Shown piece after piece: positions 42,086 through 58,581 of a stretch of 64,000 nt of DNA. Origin of the DNA: Sulfolobaceae archaeon (GTDB lineage Archaea; Thermoproteota; Thermoprotei_A; Sulfolobales; Sulfolobaceae); contig JAWARQ010000005.1 of assembly GCA_038893355.1 (NCBI GenBank), positions 1 through 64,000 on the forward strand, given 5' to 3'. The notes beneath the pieces were generated by a model, which did not search any database, had not been told where the DNA came from, and worked only from the letters and a program-made list of their open reading frames with translations. The position numbers and the translations under genes were made by a program. The stretch's first letter is position 1. Each line of letters opens with the position of its first letter.

Positions 42086-42138
42086 GGGATTACCCCCGGA
42101 CCTGATTAAAGGATGAAGAAAAGGCATTTGTCCGATTT
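42080..42138 (+). ncRNA. Box C/D sRNA candidate
   Basis: Degenerate C ATGAGGG overlapping the gatE stop - ATTACCCCCGGAC - D' CTGA - C' ATGAAGA - AAAGGCATTTGT - D CCGA. Confidence 0.55.
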
Positions 42139-42142
42139 AGTG

Positions 42143-43255
42143 ATGAACTTGACCGCTTATGATAAAATAGATGAATTGATAAAGGTAGCCGCTGAATTTC
42201 CTATTAGAAAATTAGAGGAGATTAGCCTAACTGAAGAATTATTATATATAGATCAACTACCTCAACTATTGAAACTTCTTTCTGTTAAAAAAATAAAATG
42301 GAATTTTAATGCTAAAATAATAGGACCAGACGGTACAGTAATAAATACTCTAGGTGACGATAATGATAAGACGTTTTTAGTCAAGACACCTATAAAGAGA
42401 ATACCAATTGGATGGTTTATACCAAAAATTAAAGAAAACGAAATTAAAGATATGATTTATGACCTTATTCCTTGTAAGGAAGGTACTAGTTATTTTAATC
42501 CCTCAATGTGGCAAAGATTAGAGGTAGAGAAAAGAGAGGGAGGAAAGGTTAATATTATTAATAATTTATTTAAGTTTAGTGCAGGTGAAATTACAGAAAC
42601 TCCAAGAAAATTTGAAAGAGAAGAGGGGATTGAAATTAACTTGTATGAGAATGGTGATCTAAAACTTGATACTAGAATGTATAATCCTACATTTTACTAT
42701 CTCAATCCATTCTTTATTGGTAGTACAGAATCTTTAGAATTTGGTAGATCAAACTTTTTCTGCATTTCCCTAGATTCCACAATAAGCATAATATCTAACG
42801 ATCCATTTTTTATAGAATTTAGAGACGGTTTAGCTAAGGCGTATGGTAATCTATTTTTAGTAATTAGGAGTAAGAGTTGGAAGGAAATAAAACCCCATTT
42901 ACTTACATGGGATATGAGAAACAAGATTATAGAACTGGACTGCAAGCCACCTTTTAGAATTTCCTTATATAAAATAGAGCCACCATGGGCTATTCCGTTT
43001 TATATCTCTTACTCCACCGGAAAATTAAGGCTTGGTTTAATAAATCTTTCAGAATATGATATGATTTTTACATTTAGTATAGCAGGGAGAATAACTTATG
43101 CTAAGGTTTTGAACTCTGCTGGCAATGAGACGGAGAACCTTAATGTTGAGTTTGATAGGGTTAAAATACCTATAAGAATGTTTGGAATAGTTTTCGTGGA
43201 AATAGGGGTAAAGAGATTACTTGAAAGTTTCCTTAGAAGAAAGATGATTGAGTAA
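42143..43255 (+). CDS. Hypothetical protein with a C-terminal beta-sandwich resembling the GH38 C-terminal domain
   Basis: About 370-aa ORF; start placed after the sRNA (ATG 42143). Confidence 0.7.
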   Translation: MNLTAYDKIDELIKVAAEFPIRKLEEISLTEELLYIDQLPQLLKLLSVKKIKWNFNAKIIGPDGTVINTLGDDNDKTFLVKTPIKRIPIGWFIPKIKENEIKDMIYDLIPCKEGTSYFNPSMWQRLEVEKREGGKVNIINNLFKFSAGEITETPRKFEREEGIEINLYENGDLKLDTRMYNPTFYYLNPFFIGSTESLEFGRSNFFCISLDSTISIISNDPFFIEFRDGLAKAYGNLFLVIRSKSWKEIKPHLLTWDMRNKIIELDCKPPFRISLYKIEPPWAIPFYISYSTGKLRLGLINLSEYDMIFTFSIAGRITYAKVLNSAGNETENLNVEFDRVKIPIRMFGIVFVEIGVKRLLESFLRRKMIE

Positions 43256-43604
43256 GTTCATAAGCACAGCTGCCTATATTATATCCGTACTTATTTAAAA
43301 CTCTCCTACCTTCTGTACATAAAGAACATAATATTATTACAATATTACCTTTACCTGTTAATAAAGAGTCTACAGCCTCATCAAGCTTATTCATAAACCT
43401 TTCATCTTTTATTAAAATATTCTTCATAGTACTACCGCGCCTACCTTTTAGATAATTACTAAGAGCTGCAGGTGTAAGGTTCATTATAGTAGAGGCTTTA
43501 TATATTGATAGATTCTTCTCTCTTATTAGTCTCTCTGCTATCAATGATCTAATTGCTGGTAGCAGATCTCTAGCTGCAACTTCACATGGTACTGCCAGTT
43601 CCAT
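43233..43604 (-). CDS. XRE-like HTH transcriptional regulator (COG2522-like) with Cys motif
   Basis: PCEVAARDLLPAIRSLIAERL, HTH LTPAALSNYLKGRRG, LCSLC. Confidence 0.82.
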   Translation of the reverse strand: MELAVPCEVAARDLLPAIRSLIAERLIREKNLSIYKASTIMNLTPAALSNYLKGRRGSTMKNILIKDERFMNKLDEAVDSLLTGKGNIVIILCSLCTEGRRVLNKYGYNIGSCAYELTQSSFF

Positions 43605-43641: not shown

Positions 43642-46140
43642 TTATAATTCGCACGTCTTGCATCCGCCTGCAAAATCTTCTGCAACTTCAACATATTTTT
43701 TCTCTAATCTGAATGACGATGGTAAAATCTCAGTCTTCTTCTCCTTTTTTAACTCCTCTCTCTCTTTCTTAATTCCGAAGTATATTACTTGTTGACTCTT
43801 ACTTTTATCTCTATATACAGTAATTCCTTTAATCCCTAATTTCCAGGCTAGTAGATATACTCTTTCTACAGTATCTGGCAATTCCTGACTCTTTAAATTT
43901 ATAGTCTTAGAAGTACCAGAATCATTCCATTGTTGCCAACATGCTTGATGTAGTACATGATATTCTGGCGGAACCTCATGTGCAGTTCTAAATAATTTCC
44001 TTATACTCTTAGGCATGAATTTATCATTCCCAACTTCTCCCGTTTCAGCTATCTTTTGTATAACCTCTGGATCATCTAATTCATATTTTCTTAAATATTC
44101 TAGGAATAATGGGTCTATCTCAATAAACTTTCCTACTGCAACATTTCTTACAAACGCTAGAGCAAATAAAGGTTCTATCGATGAAGAAGTACCTGCAATT
44201 ATGGAAATAGTACCGGTAGGTGCGACAGATACAACGGTTGCATTTCTTAAACCATATTTAAATCTTTTTGCCTTTAGCTCAGAAAAGTCTAATTGTAAGG
44301 ATGGCTTCATTAGTTCTTTTACACTTTCACTAACCTCTCCATTTATACCAGCAATTTGTAATAATTCCTCAAAACTTTTAGCAGTCTCCCATATGTCTCT
44401 ATATAGAGTTGCATCATATGCAGGAAAAGAACCTTTTTCTATTGCAAGTTCTATAGAAGTCTCGTATGCAACATAATAGATAAATTTTGCAAGATTATAA
44501 GAGACATATAGAGCGTCAACACTATCATAAGGTATTCCTAACTTGATTAACATTCTAGCTAATCCCATTACGCCTAATCCAACCTTTCTAGTTCTCTTAG
44601 TAGCCTCTTCGATTTGCTTTAATGGATATCTATTTGCATCTATGACGTTATCTAAAAATCTCATTGCAATTCTAATAGTCCTTCTTAGATCATCCCAATC
44701 AATATATTTTCTTCCATCCTTTTCTTTTACAAATTTTTCTAAATTTATTGAGCCAAGATTACATGACTCCCACGGTAATAATGGCTCTTCGCCACATGGG
44801 TTCGTTGCATTAATTTTTCCTAAATACCATACTGGATGCCTTCTATTTATCTCGTCTATGAACAATAATCCAGGGTCTCCAGAATCCCATGCACCCTTTA
44901 CAATTTCCTCGAATAATTGCCTTGCATTAATGTACTTAACTATTGCTCCTTCTTTCTCTGCAATTACTAAAGCTTCGTCAACTGTTATTATCTTACTCTC
45001 ATCTAACCAAACCGATTCTTTCTCTTCTAGTTCTCTTAGAATCTCTTCTTGAACCCACTCTTCCGAAATATAGTTTCTTGCTTTAGAGATATAATAATCC
45101 CATTCTGTGCCTGCAATTTTTGTTTTTCTAGGATTTATAAGAGGCACTTGCTCCCCAGACTCCACAGCCTTCATGAAATAATCATAAACTCCTACTGATA
45201 TATTGAAGTTCTGTAAATGTGCATCTTTTAATTCACCAGTTTTAGATTTTATAAAATCAAAGATATCAGGATGCCAAACATGGAGTACACCCATGTTTGC
45301 CCCTCTTCTCTTTCCACCTTGCTTTACTACGTCAGTGGAGACATCGAATACCCTCATAAAAGAAATTGGACCAGAAGCTACGCCAGATGTAGATGCTACT
45401 ATATCTCCTTTAGGTCTTAACTCTGAAAAATCGAATCCAGTACCTCCACCTTGCTGATGAATTAAAGCCATTGCCCTTATTGCATCATATATTCCGTCTT
45501 GATTTGGAGTAGACATTGCATCCTTAACTGGGACGACAAAGCATGCAGAAAGTATTCCTAATCTTGTTCCAGCATTCATCAATGCAGGTGAGTTAGGTAA
45601 GAATTTTAAATTAGAAATTATATCATAAAATTCTTCTTCTATTCTTCTAATATCTTCTTCAGACTTTCCATAAATTTTTTCTACATTCGCTAAATGTCTT
45701 GCAACTCTTCTGAATAGCATTTGGGGAGTTTCTTTATATCTTAATGTCTCTGGATCCTTTATGAGATATCTTGCCTCTAGTACTTTTAAAGCATTATAAG
45801 ATAATAGTAAATCCTTTTCGTCAAAATTTTTCCACTTCCCTTTTCCAAATACATGATTATATATTCTTGCTAGTACGTACTTCTTAGCAAATTCTAATAG
45901 ATAAGGATACTGTAATGACTTCTCTACTAAGTTTCTTTCTACTATATCAGCTATAGTTTTAGACGAAATCATATTATCCTTTATATTAGCCCTTATATCG
46001 TCAACTATACTATCTAATACAGCCTCTGGAACTCCTTGTAATTTAGAGAACAATTTAGCTAGAGATAGGTCTTCTATCCTACCATCATATTTAATAACCT
46101 TAACTGTCGATAGTTGTGTTATTGCCCTTAATTCTTGCAT
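43642..46140 (-). CDS. nrdJ: Class II (adenosylcobalamin-dependent) ribonucleotide reductase
   Basis: N-terminal ATP-cone-like [39 protein letters not shown] and C-terminal CKTC. Confidence 0.95.
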
Positions 46141-46288
46141 AGATATCGCATCTATATTTTTACTTACATCTTTTTCAATAATATAGTTAATCTAACTAGT
46201 ATTACCCCAACTCTCCAATTTTTAGTAATATTTTTGAAGGGTCATAAATAAGAAAGCCTTTTTACAATGAAATCTTAATATAAAATAA

Positions 46289-48199
46289 ATGAGTAATATA
46301 CTGGTAAATGAATTAAGATTGTTTTCTTTCTTATCAAAAAATAAAAAAGGGAGAATGCCTAAAGATATAATTAAAATTAAAAATATTGACGAATTTTCAA
46401 AATTAACAGGTGAAGAGACTCCACGATATGATTTTATAAGAGGTGAAGAAGGAGAAGTTATTGCAGATCTTATTGATCTAAGAGGTATTGAAGATCTAGG
46501 TGATAGGATTAGAGTATTACCTGGTACGAAATGGCGTGATGTAATAAATTTTTCTCCCGAAATATTTGGAAATCTTGATTTTAGCGTAGGTGGTGATGTT
46601 CACTTTAACGAACCAGTATTCGGATTTAATGAATTTGGTGAAATAAGAAATAGAGTAGAAGTCGAGGCAATAATTAATGGAAAGAGTTATACAGGAAAAT
46701 ATGTTGGAGGTATAATTAAATCAATAATTATAAGAAAAGAAATTAAAAATATAATTTATATGAAAAAAGACATTAGTATTAATGAATTTATAGATACTAT
46801 AGATTCTTGGTTTTCAAAAACGATACCAGTATTTAGGGATATTAGAGCATTTAAAAACGGAGAAAAAGTAACCCTCTTAGTAGCATATCCGGAATTTAGG
46901 AAAGGGTTATTAAAAAAATACATAGAGGATTTTAAAGATTCTAATGTAATTTATGAAGAATTTAACATTCCGCATCGCTATTTTTATTCTGGATACGTAG
47001 AATTAAATTCATTAAAAGATATAGTTAATTCTTTAAATAGAGCTGAGCATTGGAGTATGAGGATAGGGAGAAGGAAAATATATATTACAATATTTTCAAA
47101 TACTCCTTTATCAATTCCGTTCACTTACCTATCACCATACTGCAATATTGAGGATCAATCTTTTGGAATGGATTGTATAGGTTGTGGAAGGTGTGTGAAC
47201 ATATGCCCTCATTACGATCAGGTTAAACTTAGGGCATATTCCCCCCTTGGCTTTTATTTTTTATCAAGTATAGGAATGGGTAATGAAGTATCGCGATGCC
47301 ATATGTGTGGTTTATGTAATACGGTATGCCCAGTTAAATTAGATATTGTAGGCACATTAAAATCAGTTCTAAAGATAAATGGCGAAAAAGAGGTGAAGTA
47401 TAAACTAAATTTGAAACTTCCTAAGGTGATAGTGATCACTCCATTAAGTCAGAATTTTATATTAAGGGCAATAAAGGCAATGTTATATCTTAGAAGAAGG
47501 GGAATAAGGGTAGGTATAATAACATTAAACATTCCAGTCGAGGACATGATAAAGGGAAATTTAAGTGATGAAAATGTTATTAAGGAATTAAATGGAATAG
47601 ATGAAATAATAACAATAACACCAGAGGAATATAATTATCTATCTTTTTTAAAAACTAAAAAGATAATAGAAATTTCTTATATTGAAGATTATGTTATTAA
47701 GGAATTTAGGGATAAAATTAGAGGCTTACAAATCCATGAACCTTGTTTCTTAGGAAGCGAAAAGAATTTCCCTAAAGCAATAAAAGCGTGCTCCCACTCA
47801 TTCTTAGACTTTATTAATTCTGAAGATAATATACAACAAGTTAAGGCTGATATAACCTTATGCCCATTTACTGCATTAGTATCAAAAATACCAACATTTC
47901 TCGATAAAGCAGTTCAAATGGAAAATTTTGAAGAGTATGCAGAAAAAGCCTTAGAAAGTATTATTAGTTCGGTTAAGAATTATGAGAGTGTTATTCTCGA
48001 TATAGAATGGTATAAGGATTTAGATGATACAATATATTCTATGGTAATTAAGGACATTATGTGGTCTAAAGTAAAAAGTCTAGGTGATGAATTTATAATA
48101 CCATTATACTTTTATTTATCAATCAATCCACAACTAGAAATGCCAGAGATAACTATTGTTAAGAATATAATTGAGGAATATTTATCCAGTAAATACTAA
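46289..48199 (+). CDS. Degenerate FAD-binding / 2x[4Fe-4S] / CCG-like protein (paralogue 1)
   Basis: RVLPGTKWRDV..SVGG PCMH remnant; CIGCGRCVNICP and CHMCGLCNTVCP; HEPC and TLCPF. Confidence 0.8.
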   Translation: MSNILVNELRLFSFLSKNKKGRMPKDIIKIKNIDEFSKLTGEETPRYDFIRGEEGEVIADLIDLRGIEDLGDRIRVLPGTKWRDVINFSPEIFGNLDFSVGGDVHFNEPVFGFNEFGEIRNRVEVEAIINGKSYTGKYVGGIIKSIIIRKEIKNIIYMKKDISINEFIDTIDSWFSKTIPVFRDIRAFKNGEKVTLLVAYPEFRKGLLKKYIEDFKDSNVIYEEFNIPHRYFYSGYVELNSLKDIVNSLNRAEHWSMRIGRRKIYITIFSNTPLSIPFTYLSPYCNIEDQSFGMDCIGCGRCVNICPHYDQVKLRAYSPLGFYFLSSIGMGNEVSRCHMCGLCNTVCPVKLDIVGTLKSVLKINGEKEVKYKLNLKLPKVIVITPLSQNFILRAIKAMLYLRRRGIRVGIITLNIPVEDMIKGNLSDENVIKELNGIDEIITITPEEYNYLSFLKTKKIIEISYIEDYVIKEFRDKIRGLQIHEPCFLGSEKNFPKAIKACSHSFLDFINSEDNIQQVKADITLCPFTALVSKIPTFLDKAVQMENFEEYAEKALESIISSVKNYESVILDIEWYKDLDDTIYSMVIKDIMWSKVKSLGDEFIIPLYFYLSINPQLEMPEITIVKNIIEEYLSSKY

Positions 48200-48348
48200 C
48201 TATTTCAATCTTACAATAGAACATAAATAATATAAATAAGCTATTTAATTATTATTATTATTTATAATAAGATCTTGAAATAAATTATTATAGTATAGCT
48301 TCTCATTGATATAAAAAGATTTTAAGAAGTGTAAAGAATATTACCATA

Positions 48349-50178
48349 ATGGCTAAATCTAATAGTAAATCTACATTTTCTACGGATTCCTTTTATCTAC
48401 TCCTTTATAGATTTCCATTAACAAACTCTATAGCAAATTCATTAAGGCCTAAATTGTTAAAAGCTGGAATAAGTGAAGACCCAAATTATTTTGCTGCAAA
48501 GATAGTCTTTTACTTCTTATTAAGCCTGATAGCATCAATACTATTTATATTTATTGGAATTCTTGCTTTTATTAGATATACAGAAACTTTAGAAGCTAGA
48601 TTTTTAGGGGCTGGATTCATATTAATCATTTTTGCAGTTGTAATACCTTCAATAACATACTTTGTACTGACTACTGTAAGCATATCTAATAGGATAGATC
48701 AGAGAAGAACTGGTTTAGATGCAGAAACCCCTGCATTTGCTGCAATGTTTATAGTTTTCCTTAAATCTGGTTTATCGCCTCGAAGCTTATTTGAAGGTTT
48801 AAGTAGAATTGTGGCGCTAAGATATGTTAGCCAAATAGCTAAATATATTGTAAAGAGAATGAAGTATCTAAGTGAAGGTTTAGAGGAAAGTCTAGAGGCT
48901 GCATTAAATATAAGTCCTTCAAGAGTTTTTAATGACTATATATCAACCTACCTTACAGCATTGAGGACGGGCGCGCCTGTATTTGAGACTATGAGTAGTA
49001 AAACTAAGGATGTAATAAAATTATTAGAACTTATGGCTTCCTCAGCTGCCGATAAATTATCTGGAGTTGCAGAAACTTATGTCGTATGGCTAGCATCTGG
49101 CTATATTACATTGTTCTTAGCAATTTTACTCTTTTCAATTTTTCCTAATTTCTCTGGAGGTCTTTCGTTACCCTTAATGGGTGTACTGCTCGTAATTTTT
49201 GTACCAATCATGAACTTAATTTTTGTCTTACTTGCTGACTCGGTCCAACTAAAGTTTCCAGAAAGACCTCTTACAGCGTATAAAGTTTTCTGGATCTCCT
49301 TTAGTATAGGGTTAATAGTAATGTTTGGATTATTAATAATCAATAATCAATTAATTAAATTTATTACACTTTCGGGCACAACTAGTGATGTACCAATAAC
49401 TTTACTTATACTCACTATCTCACTATTAATCGCATCAGTACCTCCTGCTATAGTAGCTATAAGAGAAGTAAGAAAAGGTACTGGATATGATCAATATGTA
49501 GTTAGATTTTTGAGGGCAATTTCAGAAGGTCTAAGGGCAGGATTAAGCCCAGAAGCTGTGATAAAGAATCTTAAGAACAGTAAAGAGTTAGGAAAGATGA
49601 GGAAAATATTAGTTGAGATCGATGCATATTTAAGCTTAGGGTTAACTTTAAAAGATGCCCTCAAAAAAGCTTCGGAAAAAATTGATGAATTCTCGTCTAA
49701 GGTTGCTTTAGTAAGCTTAGCAGATATGATAGAGGTAGGAAGTATGACACCAGAAACTATCGAAGTCTTAGCAGAGCAGATAGAATCCCAAATTAGGATA
49801 AGAAGAGAGTATAATGCTAAAGTAAGGATATTGTTATATATGCCTTATATAGGCATACTATTGGCAATAATTGCAACAATCTTACTTTCTAACTCAATAT
49901 TACAGCTACTTACTGGAGAATATTCCAGAATATATGCAAGCTATGGACCATTAGCTACAGCAGCAACATTAATTCCAACTGCAGTATACATAATAACAAT
50001 ATCATCAATGTGGAATTCGTTTTTAGCTGGACTTCTAGTAGGAAAAATAGGGAATGGAAAGGTGGGTTTAGGGTTTATTCACTCTGCAATTCTAGTAATT
50101 ATAACGGCTTTACTCATAATGATTTCGCTTCAAATTAGCCTTATACCCAGTATTTCACCATCAACGTATGGTTTATAA
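48349..50178 (+). CDS. aapF: Type IV pilus membrane platform protein (T2SS-F/TadC, AapF-like)
   Basis: Two GspF-like cytoplasmic domains (LKSGLSP, FLRAISEGLRAGLSP) and about 9 TM helices; adjacent to the ATPase. Confidence 0.82.
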   Translation: MAKSNSKSTFSTDSFYLLLYRFPLTNSIANSLRPKLLKAGISEDPNYFAAKIVFYFLLSLIASILFIFIGILAFIRYTETLEARFLGAGFILIIFAVVIPSITYFVLTTVSISNRIDQRRTGLDAETPAFAAMFIVFLKSGLSPRSLFEGLSRIVALRYVSQIAKYIVKRMKYLSEGLEESLEAALNISPSRVFNDYISTYLTALRTGAPVFETMSSKTKDVIKLLELMASSAADKLSGVAETYVVWLASGYITLFLAILLFSIFPNFSGGLSLPLMGVLLVIFVPIMNLIFVLLADSVQLKFPERPLTAYKVFWISFSIGLIVMFGLLIINNQLIKFITLSGTTSDVPITLLILTISLLIASVPPAIVAIREVRKGTGYDQYVVRFLRAISEGLRAGLSPEAVIKNLKNSKELGKMRKILVEIDAYLSLGLTLKDALKKASEKIDEFSSKVALVSLADMIEVGSMTPETIEVLAEQIESQIRIRREYNAKVRILLYMPYIGILLAIIATILLSNSILQLLTGEYSRIYASYGPLATAATLIPTAVYIITISSMWNSFLAGLLVGKIGNGKVGLGFIHSAILVIITALLIMISLQISLIPSISPSTYGL

Positions 50179-50202
50179 ACTATAAAAACATTCTTTTTAA
50201 CT

Positions 50203-51918
50203 ATGAAATTACAAATTCCATTAGTTAAGCCTAAGAAGACTAGCGAAAAGAGGCAGATTAGATCTTTCGAATCCCTACCACTTACACTCACTCCAATTTT
50301 CTCGGGCTATGTAGAAATAGGAGATATAGTAAGTGAGTACGAAATAAATTTATTTAAAGTATTACCTGCTGAAATAATAGATAATTTAAATGAGAAAAGA
50401 ATAGAATTAAATATAGCTAATCCGCATGTATTTATTTCCTTTGAGCAAAACAAGGCAATATACAAATATAATTTGATTGAACCACCTCTAGATCAAGAAT
50501 CACTAGAATTATATCTATTATTAGTTAGCGAGATAGAAAGAGAACTACTATCAGAAAAAGAACATCTAGATCTAGGTTCGATATTAGTACAGCTTCATGA
50601 AAGGGGAAAATATAAAATCTTTGAAGGTAAAAGAGGCGATTTATATATCTTATCTACAAAAGCAAAAGTAACTTTATATTACTTATTACGTAATATCACC
50701 GGCTATAATATACTAGCACCATTATTAGCAGATCCGAAAATTGAAGATATATCTTGCAATGGAATGAATTTACCGGTTTATGTGTATCATAGAGACTATG
50801 AATACATGCCAACTAATATTATATTTACTGAAAAAATTCCAGTAGTGAATTATATCGTAGATGGAAAACAGTTGTTAGACCAACTAGTTATGAAACTGTT
50901 ATCCCTATCTGGCAAATCAATATCTATAGCTAATCCTATATCGGAAGGCATGTTACCTAAAGGAGAAAGAATTGCAGCTACTTTTAAGACAGAAGTTTCT
51001 GCAACTGGTTCTAGTTTTGTGATAAGAAGATTTAGTGAAGCACCAATAACTATTTTAGATTTAATCAACAGTAATACGTTATCACCAGAAATTGCAGCAT
51101 ACTTATGGTATGCAATGGATCTTAAATTATCCTTTATGGTTATAGGGGTAACTGGTTCCGGCAAAACTACGACACTAAATTCAACCATAAATCTAGTGAA
51201 AGAGTCGTCAAAAATTGTATCAATAGAAGATATTCCAGAAATTAAGATTGCACACGAGAATTGGGTACAGTTGTATGCAAGACCTGCATACGCTGGAATA
51301 GGTAAAGAAATAACACTAATGGATTTATTAAAGCTAGCATTAAGATATAGGCCAGATCTAATTGTGGTAGGTGAAATAAGAGGTGCAGAGGCTTATGTTC
51401 TTTTCCAGGCATTTTCAACTGGTCATGGTGGTGCAACGACCTTCCATGCTTACGATACTGAATCTGCCATTAAGAGACTTATGAATGAACCAATAAACAT
51501 ACCAAAAGAATGGATTCCAATGATGAATATCGTATTAACGGTAAGGAGGGTTCCAATATATACTGGAGAAAAGATTGTGGTAAGAAGAAGGGTAGTAGCA
51601 GTAGATGAAATATTAAGCGTTAATGATATTAGGAGGGTAAGTTACTGGGATCCAAAAAGAGATGTTCATGTCTTTGAACCTATTAATGCAAAAGTGATGG
51701 CAGCAAGATTAGAGGAAGTAGGAAAGACAATAGATGATGCTGTTGCAGAATTGGAAAGAAGGGCAACCTATTTATCAGCCCTGGCATCTATTAGGGAAAT
51801 TGTAAAGAGTCCAGAGAGTTATAAGGAAGTAAAGAAATATATAATAAAGTATAGTTTAAAGCCAGAGGAAGCGTATAAGGAAGTTACTGCAATGGCAAAA
51901 ATCTCCCCTAGAGCTTAA
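50203..51918 (+). CDS. aapE: Type IV pilus assembly ATPase (VirB11/TadA family, AapE-like)
   Basis: DPKIEDISCNG, GVTGSGKTT, SIEDIPEI, RPDLIVVGEIRG and TGHGGATTFHA motifs. Confidence 0.85.
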   Translation: MKLQIPLVKPKKTSEKRQIRSFESLPLTLTPIFSGYVEIGDIVSEYEINLFKVLPAEIIDNLNEKRIELNIANPHVFISFEQNKAIYKYNLIEPPLDQESLELYLLLVSEIERELLSEKEHLDLGSILVQLHERGKYKIFEGKRGDLYILSTKAKVTLYYLLRNITGYNILAPLLADPKIEDISCNGMNLPVYVYHRDYEYMPTNIIFTEKIPVVNYIVDGKQLLDQLVMKLLSLSGKSISIANPISEGMLPKGERIAATFKTEVSATGSSFVIRRFSEAPITILDLINSNTLSPEIAAYLWYAMDLKLSFMVIGVTGSGKTTTLNSTINLVKESSKIVSIEDIPEIKIAHENWVQLYARPAYAGIGKEITLMDLLKLALRYRPDLIVVGEIRGAEAYVLFQAFSTGHGGATTFHAYDTESAIKRLMNEPINIPKEWIPMMNIVLTVRRVPIYTGEKIVVRRRVVAVDEILSVNDIRRVSYWDPKRDVHVFEPINAKVMAARLEEVGKTIDDAVAELERRATYLSALASIREIVKSPESYKEVKKYIIKYSLKPEEAYKEVTAMAKISPRA

Positions 51919-51927
51919 GGCCTAGAT

Positions 51928-54201
51928 TTAGAACTGAGTTGCTAATCTTATATTATCTAAAATTAGATTATACGAAATTGCCTTTCTTATTATCTCTTCT
52001 TTTATAACGTTAAGGAATTCCTCTTTCTCAACTATCTCTCTTACAGTGTAATCAAGTTTTTTTGAATTTCTTATACCCCTAGTTAATTCAAAAGCAATTT
52101 CATTATAATCCATACCCTTAAGTATTTCATAGATCTTCGAAGAAATTTCTTTTATAGTCGCTTCAGATGCTAAATAGCGAGCTATCTCTTCTCTATTCAA
52201 ACTATCAAGTATTAGAGCTCTAACCCTTTTAGAGAAATTCCTTCTTAAAATAGGTATTGCGAGTAATGCAAAATAACCTTTGCCACCTACACTCCACATT
52301 ATTACCTTCTCTGCAATGTCATCAATTGAAGACAGTATTGCCTCTTTATACGCTTGTACTACTATATTTATAATTTTCTCTTCAACTTCTCTACTAGTTT
52401 TAGTTGTCTTAGTTGAAATCTCAGTAGGTGCTAGATAGGAATAAACTGATGTTGCACCAAATTTCCATGTAGAAAACGGACATATAGTTAATATATCTTC
52501 TTTTTTCTCTACGCTTACTATCTTCCCTAAATAATTAGTTATAAATAATCCAGCACAATCGTTATTATCGCCACTAATTCCTAACCTTTGAGCCCAGCAT
52601 CCAGCATGAATTTTTCCTTTTATAAAATCTTTTACGATTTCATAAACTAGAATTCCCTTATCACCGCTAAGGAGATTATATATATATAAAGCCTCGGGGC
52701 AGAAGAAGTAAACATATACTGCCCCCGACTCCTCCTTGATTCTTCTTATCTCCTTAACCTTCTCTTCAGCTTCCCTTATCTTCCCACTAATGTAACTATC
52801 AAATCCGCAACAGATTCCGTCGACTATTTTAAATCTCAGGGAATAGTTCTTTATCTTATCGCCAGACTCTACTATGAATTTAAGGAAGCTTTCTACTCCT
52901 TTCCTATCATACTTATAGCTACAACCTATGAAAAGTAATACTAGTGGTTGATTTTTATAAATTGAATTAACTACTTTTTCTACTTCACCCTTTAAAACTT
53001 CAGATACCTTTTCTATTTCGATCTTTAAATCAGATGAGGGAGAAATTCTCGGAAGTTTTTCCATATCTCTTGAGATCTTTATCCCCACTGGACAAACATA
53101 CTCGCATTTGTTGCAGCCAAAGCAGTATTCAAAGACCTTTTCGCCTTTTAATATTCTATTAAATCTTCCCGGTGGAGAATTTAATATATTTTTTGTAGCA
53201 TTATAAGCTAGACATGAATTTAAACATAATCCACAATTTATACATTTTAATGCGTCTAAATAAATATCTTGAATTTCTGAATAATCCTTTGGTACTTTTA
53301 CTTCATATTTATCAAAATTATTAATTATAAATTTCTGAATTTCTGAATAATCCTTTAATGATGGATAAGGGTAGATATAAGGGTGTGCCTTCAGGAACTT
53401 AAAAATGTTACCTAATTCTTCATAATCTATTGAAGAGAAGAGCACGTAATAATTTTCTGGAGAATTATATCTTATTAGGTAACCTATTTCAAAGTCTAGA
53501 TTAAGTTCATTAACTACCTCGAACTTATCTTGAGGTACTCTAAGACTTATGGGTATTTTACCGCTCTTTAAGATTTTATATATTTTATTACTAATTAATG
53601 AAACTATGTTCTTTGTATCTTGAATAGAATCTGGCTGAACTCCTAAAATTTCTTTATAAATTGAAGGAACGAAATAAACTACTCTGTTTTCTAAAAATAG
53701 AGCACTCCAAGAATATGGGATATTGACTGAAGTTTCTATTAGTTCAGGATAGTTTACAAAGCTCATTACAGCAATGTCCTTATTTTCAAGAAAATGTACT
53801 TGCTTCTTATAATTTACAAACCCAAACTTATAACTTCCAAAACCAGAACCATTGGTGGCTATAAACCCACCTACTGTACCCTCAAGATATAAAGGAAATA
53901 TTGCAGGATATAATGAGTTTCGCGACGAAACTTCTAAAACTTCCTTAAATGTAGCTCCTGCAGCAACTCTAGCCCTAATAATTCCACCCTTCTTATCCTC
54001 AATTATTTCCATTATAGATCCGTTATCGAGTAAACTCTTAGCAACTATTGGCTTAATTCTAGAGAATTGAATAATTTCTCCTGTCATTGAAGTTAATTTC
54101 CCAACAACGACTTCAGTTTCTCTAGTTATTAGATATCTTCTAATTTTTGAAATACCCAAAGATGCAAAAGCTCTACTAAATATCGAAGCATCTAATAGCA
54201 T
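51928..54201 (-). CDS. FAD-binding / 2x[4Fe-4S] / CCG-like protein (paralogue 2, AapX-like)
   Basis: ARVAAGATF, TVGGFIATNGSGFGSYKFG; CINCGLCLNSC and CFGCNKCEYVCP; IGC, ICCG, HAGC and TICPF. Confidence 0.82.
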   Translation of the reverse strand: MLLDASIFSRAFASLGISKIRRYLITRETEVVVGKLTSMTGEIIQFSRIKPIVAKSLLDNGSIMEIIEDKKGGIIRARVAAGATFKEVLEVSSRNSLYPAIFPLYLEGTVGGFIATNGSGFGSYKFGFVNYKKQVHFLENKDIAVMSFVNYPELIETSVNIPYSWSALFLENRVVYFVPSIYKEILGVQPDSIQDTKNIVSLISNKIYKILKSGKIPISLRVPQDKFEVVNELNLDFEIGYLIRYNSPENYYVLFSSIDYEELGNIFKFLKAHPYIYPYPSLKDYSEIQKFIINNFDKYEVKVPKDYSEIQDIYLDALKCINCGLCLNSCLAYNATKNILNSPPGRFNRILKGEKVFEYCFGCNKCEYVCPVGIKISRDMEKLPRISPSSDLKIEIEKVSEVLKGEVEKVVNSIYKNQPLVLLFIGCSYKYDRKGVESFLKFIVESGDKIKNYSLRFKIVDGICCGFDSYISGKIREAEEKVKEIRRIKEESGAVYVYFFCPEALYIYNLLSGDKGILVYEIVKDFIKGKIHAGCWAQRLGISGDNNDCAGLFITNYLGKIVSVEKKEDILTICPFSTWKFGATSVYSYLAPTEISTKTTKTSREVEEKIINIVVQAYKEAILSSIDDIAEKVIMWSVGGKGYFALLAIPILRRNFSKRVRALILDSLNREEIARYLASEATIKEISSKIYEILKGMDYNEIAFELTRGIRNSKKLDYTVREIVEKEEFLNVIKEEIIRKAISYNLILDNIRLATQF

Positions 54202-54434
54202 TACAATTAATTTTTAAGTAATCTAGAATAAAAGATTGCATTCAATGTTTAATACGTTTTATAGACAAATTTTATAACAATTTTTCGTTATATATTTTAA
54301 AATTATCTATAAAATAATAATGATTGGAGTATAGATAATATAAAGATAAGATATTGTGTTTATTACACTAAATGATCATTTAAGCGAAATAGATATTAAT
54401 GTGAATTATATATTGTTCTCATAAGGGATACTAG

Positions 54435-57422
54435 TTGAATCTAAGAGAAGAATTAGAGAAGCGATTTGGTGAAAAGTTTTCCGATAGTCTATTAGAAAGA
54501 TTAGCGCACTCCGCAGATATGGGATTTGTACCCCATTTAACTTGGGCTGGGATAAAAATAAATACAATCCCAGACTATGTTGTATACCCTGAAGATGTTG
54601 AAGATGTAATTGATATAGTTAAAATAGCAAGAAAATATAATGTACCAATTGTACCATATGGAAGAGCTACTAATAGGTATGGAAATGCAATTCCAACTGA
54701 AGGAGGAATAGTCGTAGATTTTTCAAGAATGGACAAAGTTGAAGTAGATGAAAAAGAGAAAATAGCACATGTAGAACCTGGTGCTACATGGAAAATCGTA
54801 GATTTATACGCACAGCAGAAAGGGTTACAGCTTAGAACATTTCCTTCATCCTATGATTCAACTATTGGAGGCGGTATTGCAGGAGATGCACTCGGTATTG
54901 GGTCATACGAGTATGGTTTCATTTGCGATAATGTCAGCTATGTACATATGGTAAATCCAAAGGGCGAGTTAATAAAGCTAGAAGGTAAGGATTTAGCAAT
55001 AGTATGTGGAGCAGAAGGTACTACTGGATTAATAACTAAAGCGGGAATAAAATTAAGATCATTTAATGTAACAGAAGCATTGGTAGTTCCAATTGATAAT
55101 CTTGAGGGTGTAATTAAAGCTATAAGCTTATTCTATAAAGAGGCGGTACCTGCATGGCATGTTCAGATAAGAGGACCTGCAATTTCTACATATATAGCAG
55201 AAAAGTATAAGATTAACTTACAGCCCGGCAAATGGAATATGGTGATACTTTATCCGACGAGTAGAGCTACATTGGTAGAGCCTAAAGTAAACGTAATTGC
55301 AACTTATCTCTCAACTAAGCCAATGGAAACTGAGTGGACAGGCTGGTGGAACTTTAATCATGGAGTGGTAGCCGCATTAAGAACGAAACATCTCCTTATA
55401 CACCAGCACGGCTTACTTCACTTTTCTAATCTTTATAAATTCATTAAAGATCTCGAAAAATATTTAGGAAGTTTAGGGAAATTAGAGGCTAATGAGGGCT
55501 TTGATTTAGATATTGCATTGGAGAGAAGAGAAATTCTCTTAGTAAATACATTTACAGCAGTTTCATTGCAACCACAAGATAAGAAATTGATCTATGATCT
55601 TGCGAAAAATACTCTAATGGCTAATGCATTTATAGAGAATGGCGGTTCCATGCTATCTATAGGTATGTTCTTACATAAGTGGGCTAAGAATAGGTTGAGC
55701 GTGATGAGTAAGACATTTCAAGATCTAGGTGTTGATAGATATGAATATATGAGAAGATATAAGGAAGAAATGGATCCAGAAGAGCTATTTAACCCTGGAA
55801 AAGTCTTTGAGCCTAAAAAGAGGGGTAAGGTGGTATTTGAAATAGTAAGAAGGCAAAATGAAGCCTTAAGATTTAGATTTGGAATCGGATTTGTAAAGGC
55901 TATAACACCAAGAGGGGAAGTAGAAGGTTATAAGGTTGCTAGGAAGTACCTAGATATTTTTGCAGATTATGCAATGGCTTGCATAGATTGTGGAATGTGT
56001 GTAACAGTATGTCCGCAATTTAGACTCATACCAAATCAACCCTATGCTCCTAAGGGTATGTTTGACTTTGTAAAGGGCGCAATATCACATTATGAACTCA
56101 GGGGAAGTATAGATATTCCAGATTCCTTCATAGCTGAAATCTCAGGATGTCATAAATGTGGATTATGTGATGGAGTATGCCCAGCTAAAATCCCTATATC
56201 TACCTTATTGGTTAGATTAAACTCCTTAGTTGCTAAAAAACTTCCAGAAACCACTCCAGTAGAAATTCCTATACCAACTATAGACGTAAATGATGTTAGT
56301 GATAATAACAGTAATATAGTGCTTTGGATTGGAAGGAATATGGCAGAGCAAATTGGATTAATTACGCTTATTATAAAATTATTAAAACAATTAAATCTAA
56401 AATTAAAGATAATAGGGACAAAATATGATAGTGGATTTTTAGACTATATAAGCGGAAATGGGAATACCTTAATAGAGAAAATCAGAAAGAATTTAGAGGT
56501 CTTAGGTAATGCTATAGAAATTATTACATTAACGCCAGAGGATTATAAAGTATTTAGTGAGGCATATAAAGATTTTGGAAAAATTGGAGGCATAGAATTC
56601 CTAGCAGAGATTATGCCAATCGAAATTAGGTTAATTAAATTACTTAAGATTGAAGGAAAAGGTGAGGAAATTAATTTACATGTAGCCTGCTTCTCTAATC
56701 AATATGCAAATGAGATTATAAAGAGACTAAGGGAGGAAGGATTTAAAGTAAAAAAGATTGAAGGTTGTGCAGGTGCCACGTTAGAGAAGAATCTTGGAAG
56801 GAGAGCGGATAAGATGGCCAGAGCATTAGGAGAGAGATATAATGAAATTGTTACATTATGCCCATTAGCAGCAGCTAAATTTAGGAGTGTAGGAGTTAAT
56901 GCAATGACCTTAATAGAATTTATAGCAAAGAAGTTAGGATTACAAGTTACCACTACCGAGCCTATAAGGATCGAAATAACCGAAGAAGATATAAGAAGAA
57001 TTCAAAAAGTATTCATGAGTAAACTTCAGGAATCTCTATTAGCTAGAGTAAACTTAATAGTTGATACATTGTCATTTACAACTTCTGGGACAGAAGACTA
57101 TAAGAAAATTATTGAACCATTGATTGTGGAAGCATTATATGATGCGATTAGTAATATGTCGCCTATACTAGACGAAATTATATCTAAAAAGACTAAGGAG
57201 ATTACATCTCCCGATTTAGCCAGTTTCGTTAGATCTAAAATTTATATTGACGCCTCTAGAATTATGGCGCAAGTAGTACTCGACAATATTGTAGAGAATT
57301 TTGCTAAAGTTATTAGAGAAAGTACTAAAGAAGAATATGATGAAAATGTGCTAAAAACTACCGTAATAGAAATTCTAAGAGATAATTTACCTAAGATCAA
57401 AGACTGGTTAGCCTCAAAATAA
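54435..57422 (+). CDS. FAD-linked (GlcD-like) oxidoreductase fused to 2x[4Fe-4S] and CCG-like domains (paralogue 3)
   Basis: PDYVVYPEDVEDV, VEPGATW, TIGGGIAG, GAEGTTGLIT and DPEELFNPGK; CIDCGMCVTVCP and CHKCGLCDGVCP; HVAC, GCAG and TLCP. Confidence 0.88.
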   Translation: MNLREELEKRFGEKFSDSLLERLAHSADMGFVPHLTWAGIKINTIPDYVVYPEDVEDVIDIVKIARKYNVPIVPYGRATNRYGNAIPTEGGIVVDFSRMDKVEVDEKEKIAHVEPGATWKIVDLYAQQKGLQLRTFPSSYDSTIGGGIAGDALGIGSYEYGFICDNVSYVHMVNPKGELIKLEGKDLAIVCGAEGTTGLITKAGIKLRSFNVTEALVVPIDNLEGVIKAISLFYKEAVPAWHVQIRGPAISTYIAEKYKINLQPGKWNMVILYPTSRATLVEPKVNVIATYLSTKPMETEWTGWWNFNHGVVAALRTKHLLIHQHGLLHFSNLYKFIKDLEKYLGSLGKLEANEGFDLDIALERREILLVNTFTAVSLQPQDKKLIYDLAKNTLMANAFIENGGSMLSIGMFLHKWAKNRLSVMSKTFQDLGVDRYEYMRRYKEEMDPEELFNPGKVFEPKKRGKVVFEIVRRQNEALRFRFGIGFVKAITPRGEVEGYKVARKYLDIFADYAMACIDCGMCVTVCPQFRLIPNQPYAPKGMFDFVKGAISHYELRGSIDIPDSFIAEISGCHKCGLCDGVCPAKIPISTLLVRLNSLVAKKLPETTPVEIPIPTIDVNDVSDNNSNIVLWIGRNMAEQIGLITLIIKLLKQLNLKLKIIGTKYDSGFLDYISGNGNTLIEKIRKNLEVLGNAIEIITLTPEDYKVFSEAYKDFGKIGGIEFLAEIMPIEIRLIKLLKIEGKGEEINLHVACFSNQYANEIIKRLREEGFKVKKIEGCAGATLEKNLGRRADKMARALGERYNEIVTLCPLAAAKFRSVGVNAMTLIEFIAKKLGLQVTTTEPIRIEITEEDIRRIQKVFMSKLQESLLARVNLIVDTLSFTTSGTEDYKKIIEPLIVEALYDAISNMSPILDEIISKKTKEITSPDLASFVRSKIYIDASRIMAQVVLDNIVENFAKVIRESTKEEYDENVLKTTVIEILRDNLPKIKDWLASK

Positions 57423-57522
57423 TTTAATTAAATCTTTATATAGACAAGATTATTTATTAATGCAATATCTCCTCAAGTATCTGACTTAACACATTTTTAG
57501 TTTCCTAAAACTATATATCTAT

Positions 57523-57597
57523 GGACCCGTAGCTCAGCCAGGATAGAGCGTGGGCCTTCGGAGCCCAAGGTCCCGGGTTCGAATCCCGGCGGGTCCG
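57523..57597 (+). tRNA. tRNA-Arg(TCG)
   Basis: GGACCCG acceptor stem, anticodon arm TGGGC-CTTCGGA-GCCCA, T arm GGTTCGAATCC; CCA not encoded; no intron. Confidence 0.96.
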
Positions 57598-57903
57598 CTA
57601 CTTTTAGAGTAAATGAACAAGAAGGTATTCTAGAATTACATAATTTTATTGACAGTGGAGGACCCTTCATACCGTGTGAACTATGCTCAAAAGAGCAGAA
57701 ATGTGAGTCAGATGCCGTTTAGCTGAAGGAGACTTATGACTTACCTACCGTAAAGTTAGGCCAGTTGTTGAGGCTAAGTCCCCATACTCAATAATGAATG
57801 ATTAAAATGAAAGAAAATGTAAAGAAAACGGAAGGTATTTGTACTAAAGATATGATATCTATAATCAGCTAACTATTAAATTTTAATAATCTCTTTTGTT
57901 ATT

Positions 57904-58581
57904 ATGGGAGATCCTAAGGAGTTCTTAGCAGATTATGTTATAGACTTTATTAAAGACAAGAAGATAATAGGCTTAGGTACCGGTTCTACAATAAAAAGAA
58001 TAATTGAAATTTTAGCAAATAAAATAGAGCTTAAAGATAAGATATTTATTTCTTCATCATTAGATACAGAATTATTACTCTCAGAACTTCAGTTACATTC
58101 TATCTCTCTAAGCCAGGGATTTGTAGCGGATATTTATGTGGATAGTTTTGACGTATTTAATGGTAATGTTCTAATAAAAGGAGGAGGTGGTGCTTTATTT
58201 AGGGAAAAGCTTCTCGCTGAGAATTCACATGAGAGAGTATTTGTAGGTGATAAGAGTAAATTCAAAATTATGAAAAGTTATGTAATTCCGTTAGAAGTTG
58301 AGATAGTAAGTGCTAAGTATGTTGTTAATAAATTAAAGAATAGAGGATATAAAGTCTTTCTTAGAAGTGTTGAGAAAGGTAAATATGGTCCAATAATTTC
58401 GGATAACGGCAATGTAATAATGGATATTGAAGTGCAAGATAATCAGAATTTATGTGAACTACATTATGAATTAAAGAGAATTGTGGGAGTTATCGAGACT
58501 GGTATCTTCTGTAAAGAGTATTATGATTATATAGTACTAGCTGATAACGATGGAAAATTGGAAATATTTAAGAAGGGCTAA
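57904..58581 (+). CDS. rpiA: Ribose-5-phosphate isomerase A
   Basis: GLGTGST, LIKGGGGALFREK, GPIISDNGN and GVIETGIF motifs. Confidence 0.95.
   Translation: MGDPKEFLADYVIDFIKDKKIIGLGTGSTIKRIIEILANKIELKDKIFISSSLDTELLLSELQLHSISLSQGFVADIYVDSFDVFNGNVLIKGGGGALFREKLLAENSHERVFVGDKSKFKIMKSYVIPLEVEIVSAKYVVNKLKNRGYKVFLRSVEKGKYGPIISDNGNVIMDIEVQDNQNLCELHYELKRIVGVIETGIFCKEYYDYIVLADNDGKLEIFKKG

Follow-up and report, generated by a model that had tools for sequence, protein, structure and literature searches.

Introduction

The closest described relative of the locus reported here is the aap locus of Sulfolobus acidocaldarius, in which aapX, aapE and aapF are flanked by the oppositely transcribed genes aapA and aapB (PMC4187195). 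The Aap pilus of this archaeon assembles, retracts and drives twitching (PMC11178785). A preprint describes aapX homologues of other species as encoding an FAD-binding domain and no membrane helix, and as lying within about 10 genes of aapE and aapF (bioRxiv 10.1101/2023.08.07.552258). According to the accessible parts of these reports, genetics has AapE, AapF and AapX each required for pili, genetic work elsewhere has AapE and AapF build and retract the filament, and AapX is a phosphoprotein, enriched with the phosphatase PP2A in late growth, whose role is described as unknown. To our knowledge, Aap pili retract without a known retraction ATPase. We analyzed a stretch of 64,000 nucleotides (the window, positions 1-64000 of contig JAWARQ010000005.1, our contig C5) from a Sulfolobaceae archaeon with a 1.40-Mb assembly (GCA_038893355.1; 17 contigs, 84% complete, G+C ~32%), in which aapF and aapE stand among genes for three paralogous proteins of 636, 757 and 995 amino acids (aa).

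An earlier note, written from the window sequence, saw in these five genes a candidate for an undescribed, redox-coupled pilus system. The comparisons below give a different picture, that of the known Aap motor and the known aapX in an unusual arrangement. We consider it probable that the locus combines this motor with a full-length aapX, and that the 636- and 995-aa proteins are ancient, family-wide paralogues whose genes usually lie elsewhere. AapX, the requirement for it and the FAD-domain form of its homologues have already been reported (bioRxiv 10.1101/2023.08.07.552258, as far as the accessible text goes). The accessible parts of the AapX literature mention neither two further paralogues nor a three-paralogue locus, and supplements may list them.

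The 757-aa protein and AapX

By sequence comparison, the 757-aa protein is a full-length AapX orthologue. The assignment depends on a 527-aa protein encoded beside aapE at the S. acidocaldarius locus in our comparison (L064), which an exact look-up returned as S. acidocaldarius SUSAZ_10905 and which falls in one 90% cluster with AAY81601.1/Q4J6I0. The order of genes at L064 (pilin-X-E-F-pilin) is that of the published aap locus, and because the 527-aa protein in the published aap position matches the C-terminal ~360 residues of the 757-aa protein, we identify the latter as AapX. Residues ~379-736 are 33-34% identical to the 527-530-aa AapX proteins of the S. acidocaldarius genus, which the 757-family profile finds at E values of 4e-83 and 9e-84. 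The 636-aa protein was also considered as AapX, since its gene precedes aapF, and was rejected because its orthologues are unlinked to aapE and aapF in 19 of 20 loci.

What the window protein shares with the S. acidocaldarius AapX is the CCG region and the helical tail; it differs in its length of 757 aa, in carrying VAO-like and ferredoxin modules, and in lacking membrane helices. The S. acidocaldarius-type protein (L064:7230-8813) has two N-terminal hydrophobic helices and six cysteines, with no Pfam hit and no ferredoxin motif, and on this basis the label "iron-sulfur oxidoreductase" given to AapX in the literature rests, in terms of sequence, on a partial CCG motif. The FAD-domain aapX homologues of other Sulfolobales, as the accessible preprint text describes them, are the same type of protein with the same loose linkage to aapE and aapF; they lie ~5 kb from these genes, whereas the window aapX abuts aapE (9 bp).

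The 757-aa protein opens with a degenerate VAO-like domain, continues with two ferredoxin-type motifs and a double CCG region resembling HdrB, of which the first CCG motif is kept, and closes with a helical tail of ~160 aa. The VAO-like domain yields a marginal Pfam hit to FAD_binding_4 (27.6 bits against a cut-off of 26.4). AlphaFold models were computed from alignments of 11 orthologues for the 757-aa protein and 16 for the 636-aa protein (mean predicted local distance difference test scores, 75.1 and 84.2, respectively). In the 757-aa model, residues 1-290 resemble VAO-type folds with VIA Z values of 7-8.3, and Foldseek matches to these folds are weak (best E, 1.2e-3; none at or below 0.001). 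Residues 301-596 align with EtfD 9ojn_A (Z, 12.5; root mean square deviation, 3.8; 277 residues aligned) and with 3kwl_A (Z, 10.8), and residues 419-596 align with HdrB 8rvu_B (Z, 11.2; root mean square deviation, 2.9; 163 aligned).

The CCG consensus motif is CXnCCGXmCXXC. Four of its five cysteines are present in the 757-aa protein, the final CxxC cysteine being gone (the sequence reads CPE), and the second CCG repeat is down to three cysteines. Across the family, C427, C465 and C501 are invariant, C464 is nearly so, and three further cysteines are kept. Pfam CCG (PF02754) gave no hit at E ≤ 0.01 in the 636-, 757- or 995-aa protein. Compared with HdrB/EtfD/GlpC-type CCG proteins, then, the modeled fold is alike, but the final CxxC cysteine is gone, the second repeat is reduced and no substrate or quinone link is known.

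The first ferredoxin motif is invariant in the 11 sequences of the 757-family alignment (A1). In the second motif, the third cysteine is replaced by Asp in 4 of the 11, and the other three cysteines are invariant. This site falls at window positions 53092-53124, residues 360-370 of the 757-aa protein and columns 397-410 of A1. Asp is a ligand of Fe-S clusters in some ferredoxins, and the substitution suggests an Asp-ligated or 3Fe cluster rather than the loss of a cluster.

Predictions of a complex between AapE and residues 396-757 of the 757-aa protein, run with an alignment for each chain and without controls, scored 0.10, 0.37 and 0.15 against a mark of 0.32 and speak neither for nor against binding.

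The motor genes

Our comparison set comprised 24 genomes of the same family and 16 from other families of the order. Orthologues of aapF were found in 23 of the 24 family genomes, with full-length matches at 42-53% identity; the sole genome without a match is 87% complete and in 190 contigs. For gene order we compared 20 motor loci, leaving out two genomes of genera already represented, and aapF adjoins aapE in all 20. The window aapF is 46% identical to its counterpart at L064, and the window aapE is 56% identical to the L064 ATPase and 54-65% identical to family orthologues. In the AapE tree, the family forms a clade apart from outgroup ATPases with 100% support in the Shimodaira-Hasegawa-like approximate likelihood ratio test (SH-aLRT). 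At L064 itself, aapFE is flanked by two paralogous pilin genes, one product of which matches a pilin of Aap type with a solved structure (chain 8q30_A; E, 2.8e-47) and, more weakly, other archaeal pilus chains.

The window aapE, aapF and aapX are thus orthologous to the S. acidocaldarius genes and, as there, adjacent. The two loci differ in that the window locus has no pilin genes, with none detected in the genome; that the window aapX converges on aapE, while the S. acidocaldarius gene is co-directional; and that the motor is flanked here by two extra paralogues. In most genera, the genes for aIF2-beta, DUF424, NMD3, RNase HII and a TGS-domain GTPase precede aapF and aapE. Usually, genes for a glycosyltransferase, a pyrophosphatase, an HD hydrolase, ThiD/ThiN and MoaD-MoaE and a hypothetical gene lie between aapFE and aapX, with a GHMP-type kinase and a phosphopantothenate synthetase gene downstream of aapX.

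The search for an Aap-type pilin in this genome used three pilin queries (best E, 0.68), the Pilin_N model and a signal-peptide pattern scan. Pilin_N found the Ups locus and weak sites only, and the pattern scan returned upsA and upsB as the only clear pilins, along with flagged open reading frames (ORFs) of 448 and 201 aa. A complete Ups locus, upsX-E-F-A-B, is present on contig C4 (L125:6952-12688). With just two T2SSE-type ATPases found across the 84%-complete genome, there was no sign of an archaellum ATPase. Pilins diverge fast, and in 18 of 20 relatives' loci there is no Aap pilin beside aapFE.

In three family genomes (G003, G010 and G018), aapF is broken into two ORFs, at three different positions (L069:4623-6517, L065:12842-14640 and L070:4429-6280). 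The G018 match contains five in-frame stops, and the neighboring aapE and aapX are intact in all three genomes. These cases reflect either true motor decay or working split platforms. In eight genomes of other families of the order (L117-L124), the closest aapE/F homologues mostly occur with several pilin-like genes, often together with a large neighbor of ~1000-1400 aa that has an N-terminal hydrophobic segment; no AapX-like gene was found near these homologues.

The 636- and 995-aa paralogues

The arrangement described in the earlier note, with aapF and aapE among three paralogues of the same domain order, is borne out by domain content, BLASTP, profiles and models alike. Pairwise BLASTP among the 636-, 757- and 995-aa proteins gave E values of 1e-8, 1e-16 and 2e-10; the 757 and 636 family profiles match with 99.5% probability (E, 3e-23), co-linear over 422 columns; and in a joint tree each of the three families is a clade with 100% support. 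By language-model features, the three families are mutually nearest, followed by bacterial FAD/Fer4/CCG fusions named D-lactate dehydrogenase (cytochrome). Each of the three window proteins has the full set of eight ferredoxin cysteines, as the note had it. Its description of eroded flavin domains in the 757- and 636-aa proteins agrees with VAO-type folds in the models that leave little or no Pfam signal, and both models end in the helical tail that it had proposed. CCG-like remnants is an apt description of the 636- and 995-aa proteins and not of the 757-aa protein, which has a real CCG motif (C427...CC464/465-G...C501).

Bacterial GlcD-GlcF and YdiJ-type fusions, and GlcDEF, share the module order of FAD_binding_4, dicluster and CCG-type region, and the D-lactate dehydrogenase (cytochrome)/YdiJ-like fusions are the nearest non-archaeal clusters (language-model score, 0.90-0.91). 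Relative to GlcD-GlcF fusions, all three archaeal proteins have an added helical tail, two have degenerate flavin domains, NCBIfam scores are below cut-off and none of the three has a Pfam CCG hit.

The 636-aa protein consists of a VAO/PCMH-like domain, two CxxCxxCxxxC motifs, a degenerate HdrB-like region and a short helical tail. It has no Pfam FAD_binding_4 hit at E ≤ 0.01, and its model matches VAO, BBE, DprE1 and D-lactate dehydrogenase folds (Foldseek best E, 1.8e-10; 297 matches at E ≤ 0.001). In 16 orthologues, the eight ferredoxin cysteines and C486, C501 and C525 are invariant and the CCG cysteines are absent; as in the 995 family, three second-repeat cysteines are kept. In 13 of 20 loci, the gene immediately follows, in the same direction, one for a 740-aa DEAD/Helicase_C/MZB (MrfA-type) helicase; in 16 of 20, it lies no more than two ORFs from it. 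From sequence and model, we infer a pseudo-flavoenzyme Fe-S protein that is normally paired with an MrfA-type helicase. The spacing between the two genes is ~45 bp at L033:9041-13164 and at 12 other loci of L031-L050. In this genome, an MrfA-type helicase gene stands at C3:166385-168616 without a 636-type partner.

The 995-aa protein has a full FAD_binding_4 domain (128.4 bits), in agreement with the full flavin module noted earlier, followed by two ferredoxin motifs, a region that resembles HdrB but lacks the CCG cysteines, and a helical tail. Its family keeps all eight ferredoxin cysteines invariant, along with three second-repeat cysteines, and has no CCG cysteines. Orthologues are 50-67% identical, the best conserved of the three families, and PDB profile matches are to the FAD domains of D-lactate dehydrogenase, glycolate oxidase and alkyl-DHAP synthase (E, 1e-29 to 1e-21). 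Because of this conservation, the full FAD domain and these matches, the protein most likely functions as a D-2-hydroxyacid-type FAD/Fe-S dehydrogenase. NCBIfam models scored below their cut-offs (YdiJ, 60.5 bits against 1350; GlcD, 94.2 against 567.9). The 995-type genes are followed by AP_endonuc_2 TIM-barrel and HAD genes in 14 of 17 loci and preceded by a HIT gene in 12 of 17. In four family genomes the 995-type gene is split, interrupted (~1.2 kb) or has an in-frame stop (G021:C1:1680033-1683018, G141:C1:268193-272444, G303:C135:9352-12389 and G160:C1:538167-541133), and it may be dispensable in some strains.

Linkage and distribution in the family

Linkage was counted in 30 genomes with all three paralogues on one contig, and distance to aapF in 17 genomes. 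The three occur together (within 8.3 kb) in two of the 30, this genome and one of a second genus (G001); in the other 28, any two of the paralogues are separated by 49 kb or more. Within 20 kb of aapF, aapX was found in 12 of 17 genomes, the 636-type gene in 3 and the 995-type gene in 2. Counted by motor locus, aapX lies inside the 20-kb locus in 13 of 20 cases, and the 636-type gene lies with aapE/F (within ~9 kb) in 1 of 20. The motor linkage that the earlier note had proposed for the trio therefore holds for the 757-aa protein (aapX; 12 of 17 near aapF) and fails for the 636-aa (1 of 20 loci) and 995-aa (2 of 17) proteins. Paralogues unlinked to aapEF in other genomes were part of what the note had named as speaking against its proposal, and this is what we found across the family for the orthologues of those two.

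With family profiles, 44 of 47 family genomes yielded a 636-type gene and 44 of 47 a 995-type gene. The three without the one are also the three without the other; two of them belong to the S. acidocaldarius genus and are 100% complete, and the third is 61% complete. Direct profile searches of the two complete S. acidocaldarius-genus genomes gave only ferredoxin-segment or FAD-domain matches to other proteins. Because the S. acidocaldarius genus, without both paralogues, has working Aap pili, pilus function needs neither of them, and the characterized Aap pilus works without the flavin-like and ferredoxin half of AapX as well. The joint loss of the paralogues and of this redox half of AapX is a single event.

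The 757-type profile matched all 43 family genomes sampled. Among the 257 genomes of other families in the class sample, it gave no full-length match, and in 22 it matched in part, at the level of domains. None of the 16 genomes from other families of the order had a full-length match to the 636-, 757- or 995-aa protein. A scan of contigs with the single 757-aa protein gave no match; with alignment A1 it gave 17 loci, 16 of them Sulfolobales-type relatives, and no new arrangement.

Age of the cluster

The three blocks that usually host these genes are intact here, on contigs C3 and C4, and four units, aapFE, aapX, the 636-type gene and the 995-type gene, are cleanly missing from their usual sites, where gaps of 59, 26, 6 and 24 bp are found. 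Whatever their order in time, the two arrangements are thus four relocations apart.

The trees differ on which came first. The base of the AapE tree, rooted with 8 outgroup ATPases, is without resolution. In subtrees rooted by their paralogues, the first branch is genus g14 for the 995 and 636 families; for the 757 family it is this genome with G001, all others having 99% support. In the tree of the ribonucleotide reductase (RNR) large subunit (5 outgroups), g9 and g11 branch first, followed by the other 22 genomes (SH-aLRT, 93 each), among which g14 and g4 stand beside an 84% clade containing this lineage. A concatenation of five markers (3763 columns, 3 outgroups) unites this genome, G001 and the S. 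acidocaldarius genus in a 99% clade, itself within a 100% clade that excludes g9 and g11. An approximately unbiased (AU) test did not reject this genome and G001 as sister to all others (delta log likelihood, 1.82; P = 0.485), and a strict count of polarised sites in RNR and AapE found 0 in favor of any hypothesis. On balance, we lean towards a cluster that is derived rather than ancestral.

Weighing the explanations

Several observations weigh against the reading of a known motor with its full-length aapX beside two paralogues of other home. The four units have left their usual sites cleanly; the cluster recurs in a second genus; and the RNR and five-marker trees nest this lineage inside the family. 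If the cluster was gathered late, the arrival of four units in one 11-kb cluster is hard to explain by chance or without selection, while if it is ancestral, it is an ordinary trace of local duplication. The 636- and 995-types are missing from the same genomes, and the one informative loss of both coincides with the loss of the AapX redox half. No Aap-type pilin was found by the three kinds of search in this 84%-complete genome, and binding of AapX to AapE or AapF has been demonstrated by nobody.

The earlier note had drawn from the gene neighborhood a single heteromeric flavin/Fe-S complex, formed by the three paralogues on the Aap motor, that would couple redox or metabolic state to extension or retraction. 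One enzyme, the 995-aa protein, and two pseudo-enzymes would make up such a complex, in analogy to GlcD, GlcE and GlcF. We think such a complex unlikely, although clustering of the five genes in two genera, clean absence of the units from four conserved sites in this genome and a maximum-likelihood root that makes the cluster derived are all consistent with it, as are the absence of the 636- and 995-types along with the AapX redox half in the S. acidocaldarius genus, the status of the three families as mutually nearest relatives and the ferredoxin cysteines kept in each. Against these stand the distance of at least 49 kb between paralogues in 28 of 30 genomes, the other conserved, probably co-transcribed contexts in which two of the three are found, a characterized Aap pilus that works without the 636- and 995-types, a co-loss that amounts to one event, an AU test that allows an ancestral-cluster root (P = 0.485) and the lack of any Aap pilin found in this genome. 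The complex is unsupported as a family-wide feature and is a minority possibility for this lineage. The same doubt attaches to a redox-gated pilus, with the paralogues brought together around aapFE in this lineage by a joint function, in which the 995-aa protein would oxidize a metabolite, the ferredoxin-type clusters of the two pseudo-enzymes (the 636-aa protein and full-length AapX) would relay electrons, and the CCG region and tail of AapX would signal to the motor; S. acidocaldarius would then have dropped the whole input branch at once, keeping a membrane-anchored, stripped AapX. The hints of a wider redox link, namely, the cluster in two genera and the joint absence of the paralogues with a stripped AapX, are the only ones; they rest on one or two evolutionary events whose direction is unsettled. 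If confirmed, such a link would supply a type IV filament motor with an input of a new kind.

The adjacency would be functionally uninformative if the paralogues arose by local duplication beside aapFE in the family ancestor, their birthplace order being kept here and scattered elsewhere. Paralogues confined to the family in our samples (0 of 16 other-family genomes; no full-length 757-type match in 257) and the first branching of this genome and G001 in the 757 subtree (99% for the others) fit such a relic, and the AU test permits this root. We nonetheless judge it quite improbable: the 995 and 636 subtrees put g14 first, the RNR and five-marker trees put g9 and g11 first with this lineage joined to the S. 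acidocaldarius genus in a 99% clade, and at least four deep branches have the same dispersed contexts. Very improbable is a motor that no longer builds an Aap pilus, with aapFE and aapX decaying or serving other substrates. The failure of three queries, Pilin_N and the signal-peptide pattern scan to match an Aap pilin, upsA and upsB (contig C4) as the only clear pilin genes found, and the split or broken aapF of G003, G010 and G018 point in that direction, but aapF, aapE and aapX are intact and well conserved here, the genome is only 84% complete, and pilins are fast-diverging and do not lie beside aapFE in 18 of 20 relatives' loci.

Under the favored reading, of the known Aap motor with full-length AapX, AapF would serve as the membrane platform and AapE as the ATPase of the type IV pilus assembly motor. 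AapX would act through its HdrB-like CCG region and helical tail, because this is the only part common to the studied S. acidocaldarius AapX; the part of AapX relevant to the pilus is narrowed accordingly. The extra modules of full-length AapX probably still bind Fe-S clusters, because the cluster cysteines are kept and the lost one is replaced by Asp. A redox input through the flavin-like and ferredoxin modules is conceivable, but pilus function does not need these modules. The model organism would have an AapX stripped down from a larger protein, a point that builds on a remark in the accessible preprint text, and AapX would be one of a trio of ancient paralogues limited, among the genomes sampled, to one archaeal family.

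Locus layout and assembly

The five ORFs were confirmed between the RNR gene and a tRNA-Arg gene (Table 1). The RNR gene is divergent from the 636-aa gene and lies outside the system; it is the neighbor in G001 as well (locus L047, 78% identity), where the gene order is identical, in the one other genus with this arrangement. With a gap of 24 bp, aapF and aapE are probably in one transcript, and aapX converges on aapE with a gap of 9 bp.

TABLE 1 Features of the aap locus and its boundaries, in window coordinates
Feature	Positions	Strand	Evidence or remark
RNR large subunit	43642..46140	-	Pfam Ribonuc_red_lgC, 526 bits; left boundary
636-aa AapX paralogue	46289..48199	+	Pfam 4Fe-4S dicluster only
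aapF, platform protein (609 aa)	48349..50178	+	Pfam T2SSF, 64.8 bits
aapE, secretion-type ATPase (571 aa)	50203..51918	+	Pfam T2SSE, 125.3 bits
aapX, full-length form (757 aa)	51928..54201	-	Marginal FAD_binding_4 and dicluster
AT-rich divergent intergenic region between aapX and 995-aa gene (233 bp)	54202..54434	.	Sequence inspected
995-aa paralogue	54435..57422	+	Pfam FAD_binding_4, dicluster, weak FAD-oxidase_C tail
tRNA-Arg (TCG)	57523..57598	+	ARAGORN; right boundary

Contigs of an independent sequencing run (X2) bridge the RNR|636, aapF|aapE and aapE|757 junctions without mismatch; at the 757|995 junction, run X2 has depth, and among the pieces listed none bridges it. The arrangement cannot be put down to an assembly artifact, because G001 repeats the order and X2 contigs span three of its four junctions. 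One X2 contig has a skip joint at 47613>56981, whose side measures 21 letters; it was disregarded.

No shared regulatory motif was found among the three upstream regions, which have only low-complexity, AT-rich 9-10-mers in common. A promoter and terminator scan found 60 sites where 58.1 were expected, a chance result from bacterial-type models that are not applicable to archaea. About 3% of each of the metatranscriptome runs X17 and X18 placed 0 reads on positions 45500-58500, which is no measure of expression, and none of the listed sequencing runs containing the stretch is recorded as RNA. In the hot-spring metagenome runs, the bin holding the tRNA-Arg gene (positions 57218-57651) has a summed contig depth of 271.6 in X6, far above its flanks, as expected for a sequence common to many organisms. 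Beyond the left boundary, a 380-aa ORF without a Pfam family (42113-43255) adjoins the gene for a small HTH protein (43233-43604), and a counterpart with 31% identity occupies the same position in G001 (L047).

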